A stretch of 10,801 nucleotides of DNA from a virus. Lineage: Duplodnaviria; Heunggongvirae; Uroviricota; Caudoviricetes. The notes under the pieces were generated by a model. That model was not told the DNA's origin and made no database searches. It was given only the letters and a program-made list of their open reading frames with translations. Location of the stretch: IMG/VR virus record IMGVR_UViG_2778261086_000004; one strand, written 5' to 3'. Both the position numbers and the translations under genes were made by a program. Positions 3,941 to 10,801 of the stretch are shown piece after piece; position 1 is the stretch's first letter; every line of letters begins with the position of its first letter.

Positions 3941-4228
3941 CTATTTTTTAGTGTAATAATCATCAAAATCGCAAGAAACAGATATCACAAAACCTGAAGT
4001 CATAGAAAAAGACAGGGTTTCACATGCCTTTCCGGCTTGATGGTATGCATTGATGCCACCGTATACGGATTCTCTTGATGAAAACAATGATTTTTCACCG
4101 TTTTTTTCTACAAGAATATGCCCATCTGAATCATTAATAAACCAAACAGAAATAGAGGAGCTTTCGCCAAGGAATGTTCTGTTGAATACCATGGGGGATT
4201 TACCCTTGACAACATTTTCTGCGCGCAT
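3941..4228 (-). CDS. Hypothetical protein, 95 aa, no recognised domain
   Basis: Minus-strand ORF whose ATG (4228-4226) lies 2 nt after the TGA of the upstream minus-strand small ORF (TGAttATG). AT-rich region; sequence looks protein-like but I recognise no homolog. Confidence 0.4.
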   Translation of the reverse strand: MRAENVVKGKSPMVFNRTFLGESSSISVWFINDSDGHILVEKNGEKSLFSSRESVYGGINAYHQAGKACETLSFSMTSGFVISVSCDFDDYYTKK

Positions 4229-4230
4229 AA

Positions 4231-4389
4231 TCAGCTCAGCATTTTTTTGCTATTTTTTTGTTCTGTATAGATTTTGTCTGCCACAAAATAAACAATGGCA
4301 ATGGCTAACAAAGATAGGGAAATCAGCAATGCCTTTTTAATCAATTTTTTGGCATCCCTGTAAATCTCAATTGATAATTTTTCACTCAC
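4231..4389 (-). CDS. Hypothetical small single-pass membrane protein (about 52 aa) from a GTG start
   Basis: Strong SD AGGAGG (rc of 4395-4400) 5 nt upstream of in-frame GTG (4389-4387). Predicted TM helix ALLISLSLLAIAIVYFV flanked by Lys-rich segments. The longer 124-aa reading (4231..4605) overlaps the plus-strand gene and its N-terminal part looks non-coding. Confidence 0.35.
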   Translation of the reverse strand: MSEKLSIEIYRDAKKLIKKALLISLSLLAIAIVYFVADKIYTEQKNSKKMLS

Positions 4390-4419
4390 ACCAACCTCCT
4401 TAGTTTTGAGCAGGATACC

Positions 4420-4785
4420 ATGAAAAAAGTTAACATTGGAAACGTACCAAAGATGCTCGTTCCGCTTTTTGAGAGCGGTACAATTGTGTTTTGTAGAGAC
4501 TTTCCAGAATGGCAACGCCTGCATCAAAAACTTGGCGTTGACGTGCAGGACTCGGACGCCAACGGAGCGTCTCATACAATGAGCAGCGAGAATGGTGTTT
4601 TGCATGTGATAGGTGTGTTCAATGGCAAACTATCTACTATTGCCCATGAGTGCGCTCACATGGCATTCGATATCTGCTCAAGGGTAGGTGTTGATGTTGA
4701 ACCAGGAAGAGCCAACGAGACTTACTGCTACTTAATGAGCAGGCTTGTTGAGTTCTGCGAGCGACATATCAAAAAGCCGGAGTGA
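4420..4785 (+). CDS. Hypothetical protein, 121 aa, with HExxH (HECAH) zinc-metallopeptidase-like motif
   Basis: ORF with AGGA at 4412-4415 before ATG 4420; stop TGA sits in the loop of a bidirectional terminator hairpin. Motif IAHECAHMAF in a hydrophobic context resembles a zincin active-site helix; no family assigned. Confidence 0.55.
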   Translation: MKKVNIGNVPKMLVPLFESGTIVFCRDFPEWQRLHQKLGVDVQDSDANGASHTMSSENGVLHVIGVFNGKLSTIAHECAHMAFDICSRVGVDVEPGRANETYCYLMSRLVEFCERHIKKPE

Positions 4786-4798
4786 CCCGGCTTGATTA
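4774..4798. terminator. Bidirectional intrinsic terminator between convergent genes
   Basis: Stem aagccgg (4774-4780), loop agtgac, stem ccggctt (4787-4793); A-run upstream and T-rich tract downstream (gattattactttttgc), so it can terminate both strands. Confidence 0.5.
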
Positions 4799-4978
4799 TT
4801 ACTTTTTGCTGTCTGGAGTTCGCTTATCCAATACCCAGCCATGACCTGGCTTTGTTGTTGGCGGAAGTCTTTCGTTGTCCCTGACGGTGGCAAAATTGTC
4901 CTTCTTACCACCGCGTGGCCCAACTTCCTGGTATATTCCGCCGTTTTTCCCTGTATTTTCACCTGGTTTTTTCGCCAT
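4799..4978 (-). CDS. Small YjzC-like protein (59 aa from MAKKPGENTG...)
   Basis: In the 64-aa ORF 4799..4993 the likely start is the internal ATG at 4978-4976, preceded by GAGGT. Pattern KPGE..G.NGGIY.EVG..G...LPPTT..G.W resembles the YjzC-like small-protein family as I recall it. Confidence 0.55.
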   Translation of the reverse strand: MAKKPGENTGKNGGIYQEVGPRGGKKDNFATVRDNERLPPTTKPGHGWVLDKRTPDSKK

Positions 4979-5014
4979 GATATACCTCAACATACACCCG
5001 TTATTGGGCGATTA

Positions 5015-5336: not shown

Positions 5337-7103
5337 ATGACAGATTCGATAAATGCCAATGTTGTAGTGAGTATGCCTTCGCAACTCTTCACTATGGCGC
5401 GTTCTTTTAAAGCCGTTGCCAATGGAAAAATTTATATCGGTAAAATTGATACTGACCCGGTAAATCCAGAAAACCAGATTCAGGTTTATATGGAGAACGA
5501 AGACGGCTCTCACGTTCCTGTTTCGCAACCAATCATCATTAACGCTGCTGGTTATCCGGTATATAACGGACAGATTGCAAAGTTCGTTACCGTACAGGGA
5601 CATTCAATGGCTGTGTATGACGCATATGGCACACAGCAGTTCTACTATCCAAACATTCTCAAGTATGACCCGGACCAGTTCCGGCATGAGCTAGAGGGAG
5701 AGTTTGCAAGCGGGGCATTCCCTGAAACAGTAAAGTATAAGTATGGATTACCATCTGTTGTTGATGGTGCTGTCTTCAGGAATGTACAAGAAAAGCTGGA
5801 TGATTTTGTATTTTTGGAAGACTTTGGTGGCAAAGACGATTCTGGAATAACAGATAATAGCATAGCCTTTCAGAAGGCATTCGCTTCAGGCGCAAGAAAA
5901 ATTCACTTGAAAGGTTCTGGCATATATGGAATGAAGACCAGAGACATTGAGCTTCCAGCAAAATATGAAATTATTGGTAATGCAAAAAATCCAGAGATTA
6001 AATATCTAGGTTCTGATTCAACCTTCACTATGTTTACCCTTACAGGGTCTGGCCCGGCTTCTAGTCAGTGGAAACAGGGTGGCATATTCCGAGATGTAGT
6101 CATATCATCCGACGTGCTGATTAACTGGATTGTTTGTCGTCATGTCCAGAACTTAGAGTTTGATCGGGTGTTTTTCTATAACGCACAAACTACTATGAAC
6201 AACTACCATTACTTTAACTTCTTCCGGTGCGAACGTTGGGGTAGTCCATTCTTGGGGCGTGCGGATTTAAATACTGTGGAGTTCATCAGCGAATCACCTA
6301 AGTTTCTTATGTGTTTCAGTTCTAACTCTCCGATTGACGTATGGGATACCGCCGATTTATATATCAGCCAATGTACGATGTTTGTTGGAGATTACGCGGT
6401 AAGGACACGCACAACACTTGGTGGGATGGGTGGAACAGACCAATTCGCGGGTTATCCGGTTATAATTTCAAATAGCGTTTTCGATGCCATCAACGGCCCT
6501 GCTTTCGATATGGAGAGTCTAGCTTACGCTACCATCAGCGGTAACATTATTAGTGCTGGGAGGCCGAACAATGCTCGTGGGATACATATTAAAGGTGCTA
6601 GAAACCTGGCATTTACGGGAAATACTATCACCTACTGTGGTGAGTTTGGTATGGTGTTGGAAAATGCTGAACAATGCTCTTTGTCGAATAATATATACAA
6701 CGGAAATAAGACTGGCGGGCTATCGTTGGTAAATTGCAAAGAGGTATCTGTCATTGGCGGTGCTATGGGTACATCTTATATCCGGGGTGGTTACTACGTG
6801 CAACCACTGGGGATTACAGACCCCGGCGATAACTGTAACGGCATAACCATCAATGGCGTTTCTTTCGATAGCGATATGACAACCAAGATTTACCTTAATA
6901 CATCGGAAGAGCGCAAAAACCGTATTATAGCTTGTCTAGGTGTTAATGATACTCCGACGACTTATCAGAACAGGGGGTCTACCGCGCAGCGCCCTACAGC
7001 ACCAGTCAGTGGGCAGATGTATTATGATACAACGCTAGGTCTTCCAATATGGTATAACACAGTATCATCTGAATGGAAGAGGGCGGATGGTACAAGTGTA
7101 TGA
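5337..7103 (+). CDS. Tailspike protein: P22 gp9-type N-terminal head-binding domain fused to a divergent beta-helix receptor-binding domain
   Basis: 588 aa; GGAG at 5325-5328. The first roughly 110 residues ([12 protein letters not shown]...[26 protein letters not shown]...[13 protein letters not shown]...LKYDPDQ) closely match the P22 tailspike N-terminus from memory. The remainder has beta-helix-like repeats (ISGNII, FTGNTI, LSNNIY) but is not P22-like. Confidence 0.9.
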
Positions 7104-7107
7104 TAAT

Positions 7108-7132
7108 GCGGGTGCTTAGCACCCGCTTATTT
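7108..7132. terminator. Bidirectional intrinsic terminator between tailspike and gtrC
   Basis: Stem gcgggtgc (7108-7115), loop tta, stem gcacccgc (7119-7126), followed by ttatttaattaatt; sits between convergent stop codons at 7101-7103 and 7135-7137. Confidence 0.55.
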
Positions 7133-7134
7133 AA

Positions 7135-8601
7135 TTAATTGCAGTTGAATGTAATGTTTTTATCGTAAACAAAAATCTTCTTATCTCCGACGTCAATAAC
7201 CTTTGATGGATTACCAATCTCTTTAATTGTTATATTTCTCATAACCTCATCATCTGTAATTATGAAATTTCCTCCGCGCTCATACCAATAGTTTTTTGAC
7301 AACCATTTATTGCATGCAAGTATATTCAAACCTCGGTTTACATCAATCGGAGCAATTGATATGTCTCCATCTATACTTGCTGATGAAGCAAACCAGAAAG
7401 ATGCATACCCGTTTGTGAGGTTATTCTGCCTTACAGTGTGTTTTATCTGATTTATAATATCATTAGAATTGTCTTTTTTTTCATGCATATAAATAGAACA
7501 AAAGAGAATAAATGTTGTAACAACCCCTAATGCGATGAATTTCCACCCTCTGGAGTTGTTAGATCTGCCAATAACAACAGGTGCTAGTATGAAAAATGGA
7601 ACGATATATCTTATAGTCCATTCATCTATTGGACGGTTACTTGCAAGGTATGCTGGTATCATTATAATACAAGCTATACATATAGCCATATTGACCATGG
7701 AGGTTTTGAATATTTCCTTTACTGACATTGCAACTAATATAAGAAGTAAAATCATTACAACAAAACAAAAAACAGAAATAAGCGCTGTAATATCAGAAGG
7801 TGGTTTGCCAAAGAAGAAAGCTCCACTGTATAGGAGGAATCCTTTTACGAATAAGTATAAATTATTCAGGATATCATCAAATGCAACAAATGTTGGATCT
7901 GGAACGCCTGGCAAAATGTACCAGTTATGAGCTCTTGCGTACATGGTCATAATTTTTGATGCAACATATGCAAATATAGTTGCAACTAGTATGATCAGAT
8001 TTTTTTGGCTTTTGGTTTTTACTATAAAAACCACTGATGATATTGCTACTGGTGCAATAATGAGTAGCTTTATGATGTCATCACTGAAACAAGCTAGAAC
8101 TAACACTAAAATATAAAGAGATAGAGAAATTAACGATCTTGTTTTGGAAAAATTGTCTAACATTATGAAGCAAAACAACATGGATACATATGTGCCGACA
8201 TGTATCACAGGTATTAATACGTTTAATACTGCAAACCCAGAAGGCAGCGCAACGCAAAATGAAATGGCCCATAACGATGAAAGCCTTTCTTTTGAAAGAT
8301 AAAATGTCATCAATGTAACCATTGAATACATAATTGCCGGTATGCAGTATGCTTGGTACTGTCCGTACCAGAATACCTTTGAAGCAAGCCCGTACCATAT
8401 TATGTCTGTAAAATAGAATGATACTGTAGAGAGATACCATCCACTAAGCGTCCAATTTCCGTCCGCAATGTCCTTACCCTCAAGAAGTCCAGAAACAGCA
8501 TCCGAACTTGGCAAAATCTGTTTTGAAATCGAGGCGTAGAAGAAAGTCAAGAATATAAATCCAATGATATATATGGCTGTTTTTTTTATATTTAAAGTCA
8601 T
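7135..8601 (-). CDS. gtrC: GtrC-family serotype-specific O-antigen glucosyltransferase (polytopic membrane protein)
   Basis: 488-aa, markedly AT-rich ORF directly downstream of gtrB (TAA, 1 nt, ATG), with many hydrophobic segments; position and architecture typical of the type-specific third gene of gtr operons. Specificity cannot be assigned. Confidence 0.8.
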   Translation of the reverse strand: MTLNIKKTAIYIIGFIFLTFFYASISKQILPSSDAVSGLLEGKDIADGNWTLSGWYLSTVSFYFTDIIWYGLASKVFWYGQYQAYCIPAIMYSMVTLMTFYLSKERLSSLWAISFCVALPSGFAVLNVLIPVIHVGTYVSMLFCFIMLDNFSKTRSLISLSLYILVLVLACFSDDIIKLLIIAPVAISSVVFIVKTKSQKNLIILVATIFAYVASKIMTMYARAHNWYILPGVPDPTFVAFDDILNNLYLFVKGFLLYSGAFFFGKPPSDITALISVFCFVVMILLLILVAMSVKEIFKTSMVNMAICIACIIMIPAYLASNRPIDEWTIRYIVPFFILAPVVIGRSNNSRGWKFIALGVVTTFILFCSIYMHEKKDNSNDIINQIKHTVRQNNLTNGYASFWFASSASIDGDISIAPIDVNRGLNILACNKWLSKNYWYERGGNFIITDDEVMRNITIKEIGNPSKVIDVGDKKIFVYDKNITFNCN

Positions 8602-8602
8602 T

Positions 8603-9517
8603 TTACTTATCCTTTAGAATGTATCTTGGTCGTTGCTTAACTTCAACATAAATTCTTCCTATATACTCTCCAAGAACTCCTATGCCTATTAACTGAACTC
8701 CACCAAGAAACAATATTGATACAATGATAGAAGGGTAACCTGGAACACTATTTCCAAACATCAATTTATCAGCAATCATCCATGCTCCATAAAGGAATGA
8801 TAAGGTTGCCACAAACAGGCCTATATAAGTCCACATGCGCAAAGGGAAAGTAGAAAAGCTAGTGATCCCTTCCAGCGCTAAGTTCCAGAGCTTCCATCCA
8901 TTGAACTTTGTGCTTCCTGCAACGCGTTCTGCTCGCGCATATTCTACGACATCGGTTCGACCACCAACCCAGCTCAGCACACCCTTCATAAACAGGTTTC
9001 GTTCTGGCATGAGCTTAATGTTTTCTACTACTTCGCGAGACATGAGCCGGAAGTCGCCAACATTTTCTTCTATCTTAGGGTTGCTGATTTTGTTATGAAG
9101 TTTATAGAACCACTCAGCAGATTTACGCTTCAGCCTGCTGTCAGTGGAGCGGTCAGAGCGTTTAGCCAGAACCATATCTGCACCGGCCTGCCATTTCTCT
9201 ATCAAGTGAGGAATAACTTCGATAGGGTCTTGCAGATCAACGTCAATCGGGATAATTGCCTCCCCGGTAGCATGGTCCAGACCTGCGAACAGGGCGGGTT
9301 CTTTGCCGAAGTTACGTGTGAACGACAGCGAAACCACAAGCGGGTCGGCAACAGCAAGCTCGTTGATAATTGATTCTGTAGCGTCTTTGCTGCCATCGTT
9401 TATGAAGACTATCTCGACTTCATGCTGCTGAAGCCCTTCAAATTCGCGCACGGTTTTATAAAAAATAGGTATCGTGGCCTCTTCGTTAAAGACCGGAACG
9501 ACTAAAGAAATTTTCAT
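8603..9517 (-). CDS. gtrB: Bactoprenol glucosyltransferase GtrB (GT2 family)
   Basis: 304-aa protein beginning [13 protein letters not shown]..., with the DxD region (IPIDVDLQD) and C-terminal TM helices; near-identical in pattern to Shigella/Salmonella phage GtrB as recalled. ATGA overlap with gtrA. Confidence 0.92.
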
Positions 9518-9876
9518 TTCGCATCCCTAAAGACAATGAACTTTGAATAGACGAAACCGCACACCAGGCTGATGGCGGAGAAGGTGACAAGAGTTATCAT
9601 CGGGGGAAGTGCGCATCTATCAGCAGCCCATCCAACAGTAGCACTGAGTGTTCCCATGAACCCGACATATAACATGTAGCGCATCGTTGTAGTTGATGCT
9701 TTGAATGTGAATTTTGCATTCGCGAAGAAGCTAAAACTCACAGCCACAACGAAACCTGCGAAGTTTGCCAGAGCCTGATTGGTATGTGCGGCATAGATAC
9801 ATACACCAAAAACCACCCAGTGTATAAGTGTGTTCAGCACACCAATCGAGGTGTACCTTGCAAATATATTTAACAT
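9514..9876 (-). CDS. gtrA: Bactoprenol-linked glucose translocase (flippase) GtrA
   Basis: 120-aa small membrane protein ([24 protein letters not shown]...[13 protein letters not shown]) closely matching GtrA of serotype-converting phages as recalled; first gene of the gtr operon. Confidence 0.92.
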
Positions 9877-10038
9877 TTATTTAATCAATGAGTTCTGAAA
9901 GGTATGAAGTCTATCATCCAAGTCTCAATCGATCGATACTTGCGGTAGTTGATGAGGAAAACTCTGGTACACAAAGCTTTGCACTGGACTGCAAGGTGTT
10001 GTGCTTCTCTGGAGTGCGATATGTTTGATGACAAAAAA

Positions 10039-10073
10039 TTAGCGCAAGAGGACAAAAAATCACCTTGCGCTAA
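10039..10073 (-). terminator. Lambda sib/tI-like hairpin (integrase retroregulation element), minus-strand orientation
   Basis: Inverted repeat ttagcgcaag (10039-10048) and cttgcgctaa (10064-10073) with a 15-nt loop, followed on the minus strand by TTTTTTGTCA; sequence and position just outside the attP P arm match the lambda sib region as recalled. Confidence 0.5.
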
Positions 10074-10083
10074 TGCTCTGTCT

Positions 10084-10242
10084 CAGGTCACTAATACCAT
10101 CTAAGTAGTTGATTCATAGTGACTGGATATGTTGTGTTTTGTAGTATCATGCAGTCTATTTTTTAGACTAAATGTATTTTAACGCATTGATATTGTTGGC
10201 TTTTGCTGTTTCGCGTTCAGCTTTTTTATACTAACTTGAGCG
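10084..10242 (+). other. attR (P arm, core, B') of a lambda-type site-specific recombination system at the E. coli attB-lambda site
   Basis: Arm-type sites CAGGTCACTAATAC (10084-10097) and CATAGTGACTGG (about 10115-10128); the first roughly 75 bp of the arm are near-identical to the lambda attP P arm and the rest is diverged. Core GCTTTTTTATACTAA at 10220-10234 is followed by the bacterial B' sequence CTTGAGCGAAACG. Confidence 0.85.
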
Positions 10243-10324: not shown

Positions 10325-10801
10325 TTAACTAAACATCGCAGTAATCGAGGCGCTTGCCAGAGAGTGGAAATGAACGTTAAACCCGACCATCGCGCCGCTG
10401 GCACCTTCATCGACATCAATACGTTCTATATCCAGCGCGTGAACGGTAAAAATGTAGCGATGAGTTTCGCCTTTCGGCGGTGCTGCGCCATCGTACCCGG
10501 TTTTACCAAAGTCGGTACGCGTCTGCAAAACGCCGTCTGGCATTGCTACCAGACCAGAGCCAAACCCTTGCGGTAATACGCGGGTATCAGCGGGTAAGTT
10601 AACAACTACCCAGTGCCACCAGCCGGAGCCGGTTGGCGCATCCGGGTCGTAGCAGGTGACAACAAAACTTTTCGTTCCCGCAGGAACATCATCCCACGCC
10701 AGATGCGGTGAAATATTATCGCCATCGTAACCCATGCCGTTAAAGACATGACGATGCGGCAATTTATCGCCATCGCGCAGATCGTTACTGATGAGTTTCA
10801 T
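10325..10801 (-). CDS. ybhB: Host PEBP/RKIP-family protein YbhB (complete, 158 aa)
   Basis: ORF translation MKLISNDLRDGDKLPHRHVFNGMGYDGDNISPHLAWDDVPAGTKSFVVTCYDPDAP... matches E. coli YbhB as recalled; ybhB is the gene beside attB-lambda on the bio side, transcribed toward the att site, as seen here. Confidence 0.9.
   Translation of the reverse strand: MKLISNDLRDGDKLPHRHVFNGMGYDGDNISPHLAWDDVPAGTKSFVVTCYDPDAPTGSGWWHWVVVNLPADTRVLPQGFGSGLVAMPDGVLQTRTDFGKTGYDGAAPPKGETHRYIFTVHALDIERIDVDEGASGAMVGFNVHFHSLASASITAMFS

Follow-up and report, generated by a model that had tools for sequence, protein, structure and literature searches.

A gtrABC cassette at the lambda integration site of a P22-like prophage carries a GtrC from an uncurated GT-C family and probably glucosylates the Escherichia coli O77-group O-antigen

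The DNA discussed here is a 10,801-nucleotide stretch of a tailed virus (IMG/VR record IMGVR_UViG_2778261086_000004, Caudoviricetes), referred to below as the window, and the subject is a three-gene operon, gtrABC, located at positions 7135-9876 on the minus strand. The operon is an ordinary gtr serotype-conversion cassette with a new specificity gene, gtrC, from an uncurated family of membrane glycosyltransferases that have the GT-C fold. It is likely that the cassette is a functional three-component O-antigen glucosylation module, in which GtrB would make undecaprenyl-phosphate glucose (Und-P-Glc), GtrA would flip it and GtrC would transfer the glucose to the O-antigen repeat of the Escherichia coli O77 group. 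The Man3-GlcNAc backbone of this group is the most likely acceptor because gtrC co-occurs with the O77-group wzy gene, the adjacent tailspike is similar to an O77-specific one, and a close relative of GtrC is found in Salmonella serovars that appear to have the same backbone.

Open reading frame (ORF) calling found exactly three minus-strand genes within the operon, at the coordinates where a preliminary description of this DNA had placed gtrABC, and Pfam identified the first two. The gtrA gene (9514-9876, minus strand, 120 aa) matches PF04138 (GtrA_DPMS_TM, E 2e-13) and codes for a small membrane protein, the proposed Und-P-Glc flippase. The gtrB gene (8603-9517, minus strand, 304 aa) matches PF00535 (Glycos_transf_2, E 2e-30) and codes for an undecaprenyl-phosphate glucosyltransferase of glycosyltransferase family 2 that would make Und-P-Glc on the cytoplasmic face. 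The gene in the gtrC position (7135-8601, minus strand, 488 aa) codes for a GT-C-fold membrane glycosyltransferase, the proposed serotype-specific transferase, with about 11 transmembrane helices followed by a periplasmic C-terminal alpha/beta domain. The stop codon of gtrA overlaps the start of gtrB (ATGA), and just one base lies between the end of gtrB and the beginning of gtrC. The third gene had been described as far more AT-rich than its neighbours, and the G+C content (GC) bears this out at 34% versus 45%. The GC values are 0.343 for gtrC (0.315 at third codon positions), 0.446 for gtrB and 0.452 for gtrA, and elsewhere in the window 0.436 for the receptor-binding part of the tailspike gene and 0.524 for the host gene ybhB. 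The gene thus has the properties of the third gene of a gtr cassette: it lies immediately downstream of gtrB and is polytopic, divergent and compositionally atypical.

The high conservation noted earlier for GtrA and GtrB was also found here, with 86-87% identity to the proteins of Shigella phage SfII and 95-100% identity to those of E. coli O77-group gtr loci. For GtrB the identity is 87% with SfII GtrB, 96% with the O17 type strain, 95% with strain 042 (O44) and 90% with Salmonella Carrau, and the solved GtrB homologue 5ekp in the PDB is matched at E 2.5e-89. GtrA is identical (100%) to that of strain 042, 98-100% identical to those of other E. coli O77-group gtr loci, 86% to that of SfII and 79% to that of Carrau. 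These similarities support Und-P-glucose as the probable donor. The O-antigens of the O17 and O44 strains, which are the hosts of the 95-96%-identical GtrB proteins, bear Glc (PMC7685785).

The backbone of the O77 group is ->6)Man(a1-2)Man(a1-2)Man(b1-3)GlcNAc(a1-> and the O77 antigen itself is linear (PMC7685785). O17, O44, O73 and O106 differ from O77 by Glc side-branches that published work credits to prophage gtr genes, and the locus has been confirmed solely for O44 (PMC7685785). A concatenated query of gtrC and 1 kb of the O77-group wzy was searched against 5426 complete E. coli genomes, the set used throughout this work. Both genes were present in 25 genomes, gtrC without wzy in 0, wzy without gtrC in 69 and neither in 5332, with wzy present in 94 genomes overall. 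The operon in the 25 carriers is 99.2-99.9% identical to that of the window, and in all those records among the matches listed the third gene is annotated as a hypothetical protein. The best match, strain LSC52 (99.9%), carries the wzy and wzx of the 'O17/O44/O73/O77/O106 family'. The carriers span at least two prophage types, one P22-like as in the window and one myovirus-like as in strain M7424, and therefore the association of gtrC with the O77-group wzy is not merely one phage's host range.

The tailspike gene (5337-7103, plus strand, 588 aa) is convergent with the operon. Amino acids 1 to about 115 form a P22 head-binding domain (PF09008, E 1e-65), and the remainder is a Beta_helix receptor-binding/depolymerase part that is not of the P22 type, as the preliminary description had recognised. 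Residues 115-588 are 65.6% identical (tblastn) to orf212 (TSP3) of phage CBA120, and CBA120 TSP3/ORF212 gives infection of E. coli O77 (PMC9965104). The two tailspikes are therefore alike in the receptor-binding/depolymerase part but differ in the N-terminal anchor, which in the window is the P22 head-binding domain. At 66% identity the fine specificity of the window tailspike inside the O77 group may differ from that of TSP3. The similarity to an O77-specific tailspike also agrees with the earlier proposal that the cassette is paired with a tailspike that recognises the O-antigen it modifies. A comparison with the tailspike next to the Salmonella Choleraesuis relative of gtrC found that only the head-binding domain is common to both.

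A cluster of GtrC proteins that is 89% identical to the window protein comes from the Salmonella serovars Carrau and Florida. We take these serovars to belong to serogroup H (O:6,14 in the Kauffmann-White scheme) and to share the O77-type backbone. Wang et al. reportedly described in 2007 that serogroup H and the O77 group have a common backbone. The Carrau/Florida island is the closest relative of the cassette outside E. coli, with the same gene order and identities of 89% for GtrC, 90% for GtrB and 79% for GtrA. It differs from the window cassette, which is in a prophage, as it stands alone between a fimbrial operon and proBA and has no phage genes.

GtrC is not a canonical Shigella-type enzyme. 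The 488-aa protein has no match in Pfam even at E<=10 except a chance match to SPW, and none in NCBIfam or PADLOC. Among PHROGs it matched only function-less families, which covered the C-terminus, and sequence and profile searches of the PDB returned only a chance match to HMG-CoA reductase. A tblastn search of 50,697 phage records with GtrC gave zero matches, therefore no sequenced phage in that collection carries gtrC. BLASTP gave E 2 with SfII GtrII and E 0.02 with the GtrC of K12a (the O17 type strain), which is of the PF14264 type, and a comparison of the two families by hhalign gave a probability of 1%. As a control, the K12a GtrC matched PF14264 (Glucos_trans_II) at 1e-26. With no profile match and no detectable homology to GtrII, GtrC falls outside PF14264 in these searches. 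It follows that the phylogeny against GtrI/II/IV/V/X proposed earlier could not be built for the members tested, because GtrC has no detectable homology to SfII GtrII or to the K12a GtrC. The proper comparators are the O44 GtrC of strain 042 and Salmonella family V. Near-identity to a characterised glucosyltransferase, which had been named as the finding that would refute a GtrC of its own specificity, was not encountered, as no characterised enzyme above about 32% identity was found.

The homologues that were found are full-length, are 30-89% identical to GtrC and have 13 invariant positions. Because of these homologues and a confident AlphaFold2 model, the 488-aa ORF is a real gene. An exhaustive profile search returned at least 3637 clusters at the 50% identity level, 747 of them at E<=1e-30, and most of the matches listed aligned over nearly the full length. 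A word-indexed search had given a tiny family of 24 clusters, all from Enterobacterales, and this was rejected as an artefact of sensitivity given the 3637 clusters of the exhaustive search. Ten sampled family members had no match in Pfam, and every named one is called 'hypothetical'. The order gtrA-gtrB-X is kept in all five further contexts examined: E. coli 042, Salmonella Carrau, Enterobacter roggenkampii, a metagenome contig where the genes are beside the Wzm/Wzt ABC-transporter genes for O-antigen export, and the E. coli draft assemblies with a fourth allele described below. Since this order is found in every context examined, GtrC on this evidence belongs to a second, uncurated 'GtrC' family that lacks a Pfam or NCBIfam model. 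Going by sequence relationship, this Pfam-less family includes WbbG of E. coli O44 and probably also family V of Salmonella. Distant family members of 600 aa are likewise located after gtrA-gtrB, one of them adjoining Wzm/Wzt genes in a metagenome contig.

The AlphaFold2 model of GtrC, made with 20 homologues as input, has a mean predicted local distance difference test score of 88 and a predicted template modelling score of 0.88. Foldseek searches with this model matched STT3, PglB, AftB and ArnT, and the modelled fold is unmistakably GT-C. ArnT, PglB/STT3, PMT, ALG and AftB have the multi-span membrane fold in common with GtrC. However, ArnT and the other GT-C enzymes are 7-13% identical to GtrC, are missed by sequence and profile searches and use a different acceptor, and the C-terminal domain of the oligosaccharyltransferases is far larger than that of GtrC. 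The topology model has 11 transmembrane helices with the N-terminus in and the C-terminus out, and agrees with the positive-inside rule, as Lys and Arg make up 6 of 22 cytoplasmic loop residues versus 6 of 117 periplasmic ones. The alpha/beta domain (aa ~375-488) comes after the last transmembrane helix. Almost all of the conserved loop positions (31 of 32) are periplasmic in the topology model, among them D34, D44, H134 and D174. Both D34 and D44 show at least 90% conservation and fall within the first predicted periplasmic loop. From the model, a catalytic role may be proposed for D34/D44, H134 and D174.

Another theme of the comparison is that the gtr locus of O77-group strains is allelic. 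Strain 042 (O44:H18) has a gtr locus at the same ybhB site with an identical GtrA, a GtrB that is 95% identical and a third gene of 491 aa, and it is within a myovirus-like prophage. The product of this third gene aligns with the window GtrC over the full length at 32% identity (E 1e-80). According to PMC7685785 and PMC10304059, which cite Wang et al. 2007, the third gene of the 042 locus (WbbG/GtrC-O44) codes for the transferase that adds the O44 side-branch. In K12a, the O17 type strain, the GtrC at argW is of the PF14264 type, and the same protein is found at ybhB in CFSAN061770. Among the complete genomes the K12a type occurs in 35 and the 042 type in 12, never together, and no complete genome has both the window allele and the 042 allele. 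A fourth allele, P0017 (L018:6001-7464, in draft assemblies), codes for a protein of 487 aa with 40% identity and has the order gtrA-gtrB-X next to ybhB. It is in another myovirus-like prophage, is followed by an IS200-type transposase gene and is absent from the complete genomes. These comparisons indicate that there are at least four GtrC alleles at the locus, from two unrelated protein families.

The window allele was considered as the O44 determinant and as the O17-strain determinant, and both were rejected, the first because the protein is only 32% identical to that of 042 and the second because it is unrelated to that of K12a. The 30-32% identity together with the allelic exclusivity suggest that the specificity of the window GtrC differs from that of the O44 GtrC. 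The 042 and window proteins would be expected to use a different attachment site or linkage. Since the allele is distinct from both the O17 type strain's and the O44 GtrC, its product should be one branch of O73 or O106 or a new form. No assignment of the window gtrC to a serogroup was found in the literature.

The third gene also appears to be swapped within one phage type. GF66.2 (NZ_CP172145.1 3691745-3694681) and PSS-11 (NZ_AP027694.1) have a tailspike whose receptor-binding part is 92.6% identical in nucleotide sequence to that of the window, and this tailspike adjoins a K12a-type gtrC. The arrangement points to exchange of gtrC within one phage type, with two protein families behind one tailspike. 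The earlier view of gtrC as a horizontally exchanged specificity gene is supported. Strain M7424 (NZ_CP063153.1 1441334-1444075) has the same gtrABC, with three substitutions in GtrC, at the ybhB site in a myovirus-like prophage, identified by its baseplate and tail-fibre genes. As the cassette is found in this prophage at the same chromosomal site, it is, as far as the genomes compared indicate, a mobile module and not a fixed property of the window phage.

It is proposed that the system would work as follows. GtrB would move glucose from UDP-glucose onto undecaprenyl phosphate on the cytoplasmic face, and GtrA would bring Und-P-Glc to the periplasmic face. GtrC would then attach the glucose to the O77-group repeat at one defined position, using D34/D44, H134, D174 and its periplasmic C-terminal domain. 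The phage would adsorb via its O77-type tailspike, and glucosylation would alter the serotype of the lysogen and cut the re-adsorption of the same or related O77-specific phages. Both the activity of the cassette and the protection from superinfection are what we infer from its genes and its setting.

Several points weigh against this proposal. The transferred sugar is taken to be glucose solely from the similarity of GtrB, and the closest relative of GtrC that has functional support is only about 32% identical. The co-occurrence with wzy could partly mirror the host range of the phage and not the specificity of the enzyme, although it persists in a prophage that lacks the window tailspike, which speaks against a host-range reading. 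The 25 carrier genomes are not phylogenetically independent. Expression in the lysogen is an assumption, as the region upstream of gtrA has no sigma-70-like promoter match. The serology is ambiguous, since a carrier outbreak strain is untypeable and the related strain C165-02 is O73:H18.

The serology of the carriers is relevant to which product GtrC makes. Strains M7424, M00057, M11957 and CNREC_004-43 are among the 25 carriers and have the operon at 99.5% nucleotide identity. The GtrC of M7424 differs from that of the window by V168A, V191I and V303I. These four carriers are sequence type 69 (ST69) stx2d 'O77g:K92:H18' strains and belong to the cluster behind the 2025 French haemolytic uraemic syndrome outbreak (PMC13188871, PMC13094856). 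The outbreak strain was agglutinated by none of the O17, O44, O73, O77 and O106 antisera (PMC13094856). C165-02, an older relative from the HC200 lineage of the outbreak strains, was typed O73:H18 (PMC3491183). This serology fits a new O77-group form as well as a partial O73-like form.

It is possible, and put forward tentatively, that GtrC supplies one of the two glucose branches in O73 or O106, for which it would be the transferase so far lacking, so that strains with a single allele would have a partial and possibly cross-reacting antigen. The chemistry would in that case be familiar, and just the assignment of the gene would be new. Each of O73 and O106 bears Glc at two branches, and according to PMC10304059 the O73 transferases have yet to be identified. 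The O73:H18 type of C165-02 is in line with this explanation. Strain 2018-05-2CC (NZ_AP027877.1) has the K12a type and the window allele about 70 kb apart (1723580-1725067 and 1795771-1797237), as a two-branch serogroup would need. It is a candidate two-branch O-antigen strain, e.g. O73 or O106, and none of the other complete genomes has two of the three alleles surveyed. However, the carrier outbreak strain is negative with the O73 and O106 antisera. At the sensitivity of megablast a second gtrAB-like locus is present in 9 of the 25 carriers, and a second allele of the three types surveyed is found in only one carrier.

A rather unlikely alternative is that GtrC makes a sixth, new form of the O77 group, with a single Glc at a position or linkage unlike those of O17 and O44. 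Such a form would explain the untypeable ST69 stx2d lineage, whose members carry the operon nearly unchanged and in which agglutination was negative with all five group antisera. The allele also differs from both the PF14264 allele of the O17 strain and the O44 allele (32%). Negative agglutination can however be explained in other ways, by the K92 capsule, by a rough or low-expression phenotype or by serum absorption. The O73 typing of the relative C165-02 and the assumed expression in the lysogen also speak against a sixth form.

It is improbable that the cassette is silent or cryptic in lysogens, with no promoter, a phase-off state or an inactive enzyme, and so has no phenotype. The operon promoter must be in the region upstream of gtrA (9877-10219, minus strand), which is lambda-type attP P-arm DNA from about 9965 on, or farther upstream, and a promoter scan found no sigma-70 consensus on the minus strand upstream of gtrA. 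Davies et al. showed that some Salmonella gtr families give no shift of lipopolysaccharide (LPS) even under a constitutive promoter, and that family VI shifted only then (PMC3688519). Against a silent cassette, none of the three ORFs is disrupted and GtrC hardly varies (1-3 substitutions) between prophage backgrounds and lineages, the identical protein being listed in 80 blocks of the assembly collection. Nor was a module for phase variation of the Salmonella Dam/OxyR type seen, as there is a single GATC upstream of gtrA (9931) and no four-GATC cluster.

That the third gene is some other GT-C enzyme, acting on enterobacterial common antigen, core or protein or resembling a polymerase or ligase, is very improbable: the GT-C fold is common to enzymes with very different acceptors and GtrC lacks a family annotation, but all contexts examined have the gene in close linkage with gtrAB, it was found strictly together with a single O-antigen gene cluster, and its homologues at 30-32% identity are linked to O-antigen modification.

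The O77-group glucosylation cassette can be compared with several known systems. The 042 O44 locus is like that of the window in its ybhB/lambda attachment (att) site, its identical GtrA and 95%-identical GtrB, a third gene of the same family (491 vs 488 aa) and an O77-group cluster in the host. It differs in its GtrC (32% identity) and in being in a myovirus-like and not a P22-like prophage. Relatives of GtrC at about 30% identity (484 aa, 30-31%) are found in Salmonella serovars of serogroup C1, whose O-antigen is mannose-rich, and in a Choleraesuis prophage one of them faces a P22-type tailspike gene in convergent orientation. By analogy in operon length, serovars and Scho1-like P22 prophage context, these C1 homologues would correspond to GtrC family V of Davies et al. 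In their 2013 study, the LPS ladder of S. Infantis was shifted by family V, with S1326/28_I gtr and the S. Choleraesuis Scho1 prophage among the examples (PMC3688519). The layout of gtrC and a P22-type tailspike gene reading toward each other in the Choleraesuis prophage matches that of the window. However, the family V relatives act on another O-antigen, and the receptor-binding domain of the tailspike is unrelated to that of the window. The Shigella SfI, SfII, SfIV and SfV cassettes have the same three-component logic and the same order next to att, with about 80% nucleotide identity in gtrAB. Shigella GtrII, however, is a PF14264 protein with no detectable similarity to the window GtrC, and its acceptor is a rhamnose-GlcNAc backbone.

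These results are of practical use since O17, O44, O73, O77 and O106 are genomically indistinguishable, with gene clusters that are more than 99% identical, and reference laboratories report 'O77g' only. In the complete genomes surveyed, the window allele of the gtr locus is found only where the O77-group cluster is present (25/25), and its carriers include clinically important ST69 E. coli that make Shiga toxin (STEC). The outcomes would be an assignment of alleles to serogroups, a sequence-based route to O77g subtyping and a candidate cause of the untypeable outbreak strain. If the sixth form were true, GtrC would determine the surface antigen of an emerging ST69 stx2d STEC/enterotoxigenic E. 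coli lineage, and the gtrC allele at ybhB or argW would be an in-silico marker for O77g subtyping. The work also flags a large GT-C family with thousands of clusters, whose members are annotated 'hypothetical protein' because no Pfam or NCBIfam model exists for them.

As judged from its sequence, the window includes the attR end of a P22-like phage whose integration site is that of lambda. This assignment draws on the att core, the match to the lambda attP P arm and the LSC52 prophage. The lambda att core GCTTTTTTATACTAA is present as an exact match at 10220-10234 (plus strand) and is attR, the right prophage end. The flanking host gene ybhB (10325-10801, minus strand) has its stop codon 90 nt away. 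The core is 343 nt upstream of the start of gtrA, and the position of the cassette corresponds to the lambda b region. Positions 9965-10238 share 87% identity with lambda 27470-27742 and 92% with a region of HK106 annotated as 'similar to lambda attP'. The lambda-type arm and the exact core indicate that the phage integrates at attB-lambda next to ybhB and not in a tRNA gene. In LSC52 the operon is the last module of a P22-like prophage that adjoins ybhB-bioA and has genes for terminase, portal, P22 capsid, gp4, gp10, needle, ejection proteins and tailspike. The ejection genes of the window, of the P22 gp7/gp20/gp16 type, match those of HK620, Emek and ST-35 at 90-95% of nucleotides, and together with the PF09008 tailspike they place the prophage among the P22-like (Lederbergvirus-type) ones. 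The structural part is a mosaic, of which the best sequenced phage covers at most 32%.

A terminator scan found a G+C-rich hairpin, GCGGGTGC-TTA-GCACCCGC, at 7108-7126, within the 31-nt gap that separates the convergent stops of the tailspike gene and gtrC, and it is a probable bidirectional terminator. By alignment, strain M7424 has the identical hairpin 3' of the same gtrC allele, and the O44 and O17-strain alleles have other hairpins. The last ~85 nt of the tailspike ORF (7015-7103 in the window) are kept 3' of gtrC in myovirus-like prophages that have no tailspike, as the alignment of M7424 (L005:7995-8080), 042, CFSAN061770 and K12a demonstrates. This remnant looks like a fossil, left when the gtr cassette travelled with the 3' terminus of a podovirus tailspike gene attached.

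An AT-rich insert (3941-4605, minus strand, GC 0.39), antisense to the structural genes, is located between the gene for the gp16-like ejection protein and that for the tailspike. It contains two ORFs, one of 95 aa and one that is short (52 aa in the gene calls of draft assemblies) and has a single hydrophobic segment, neither of which has a Pfam, PHROG or PADLOC match. In LSC52 an unrelated ORF of 164 aa is found at this site, which may be a variable moron or exclusion slot. We presume that its position matches that of P22 sieA. Two small conserved phage ORFs without an assigned function are located between the moron and the tailspike gene, one at 4420-4785 (plus strand; phrog_1365, E 1e-39) and one at 4799-4993 (minus strand; phrog_3202, E 3e-31) with weak YjzC-like similarity. 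The region 4420-4993 presumably corresponds to the immI/hkcC region of P22.

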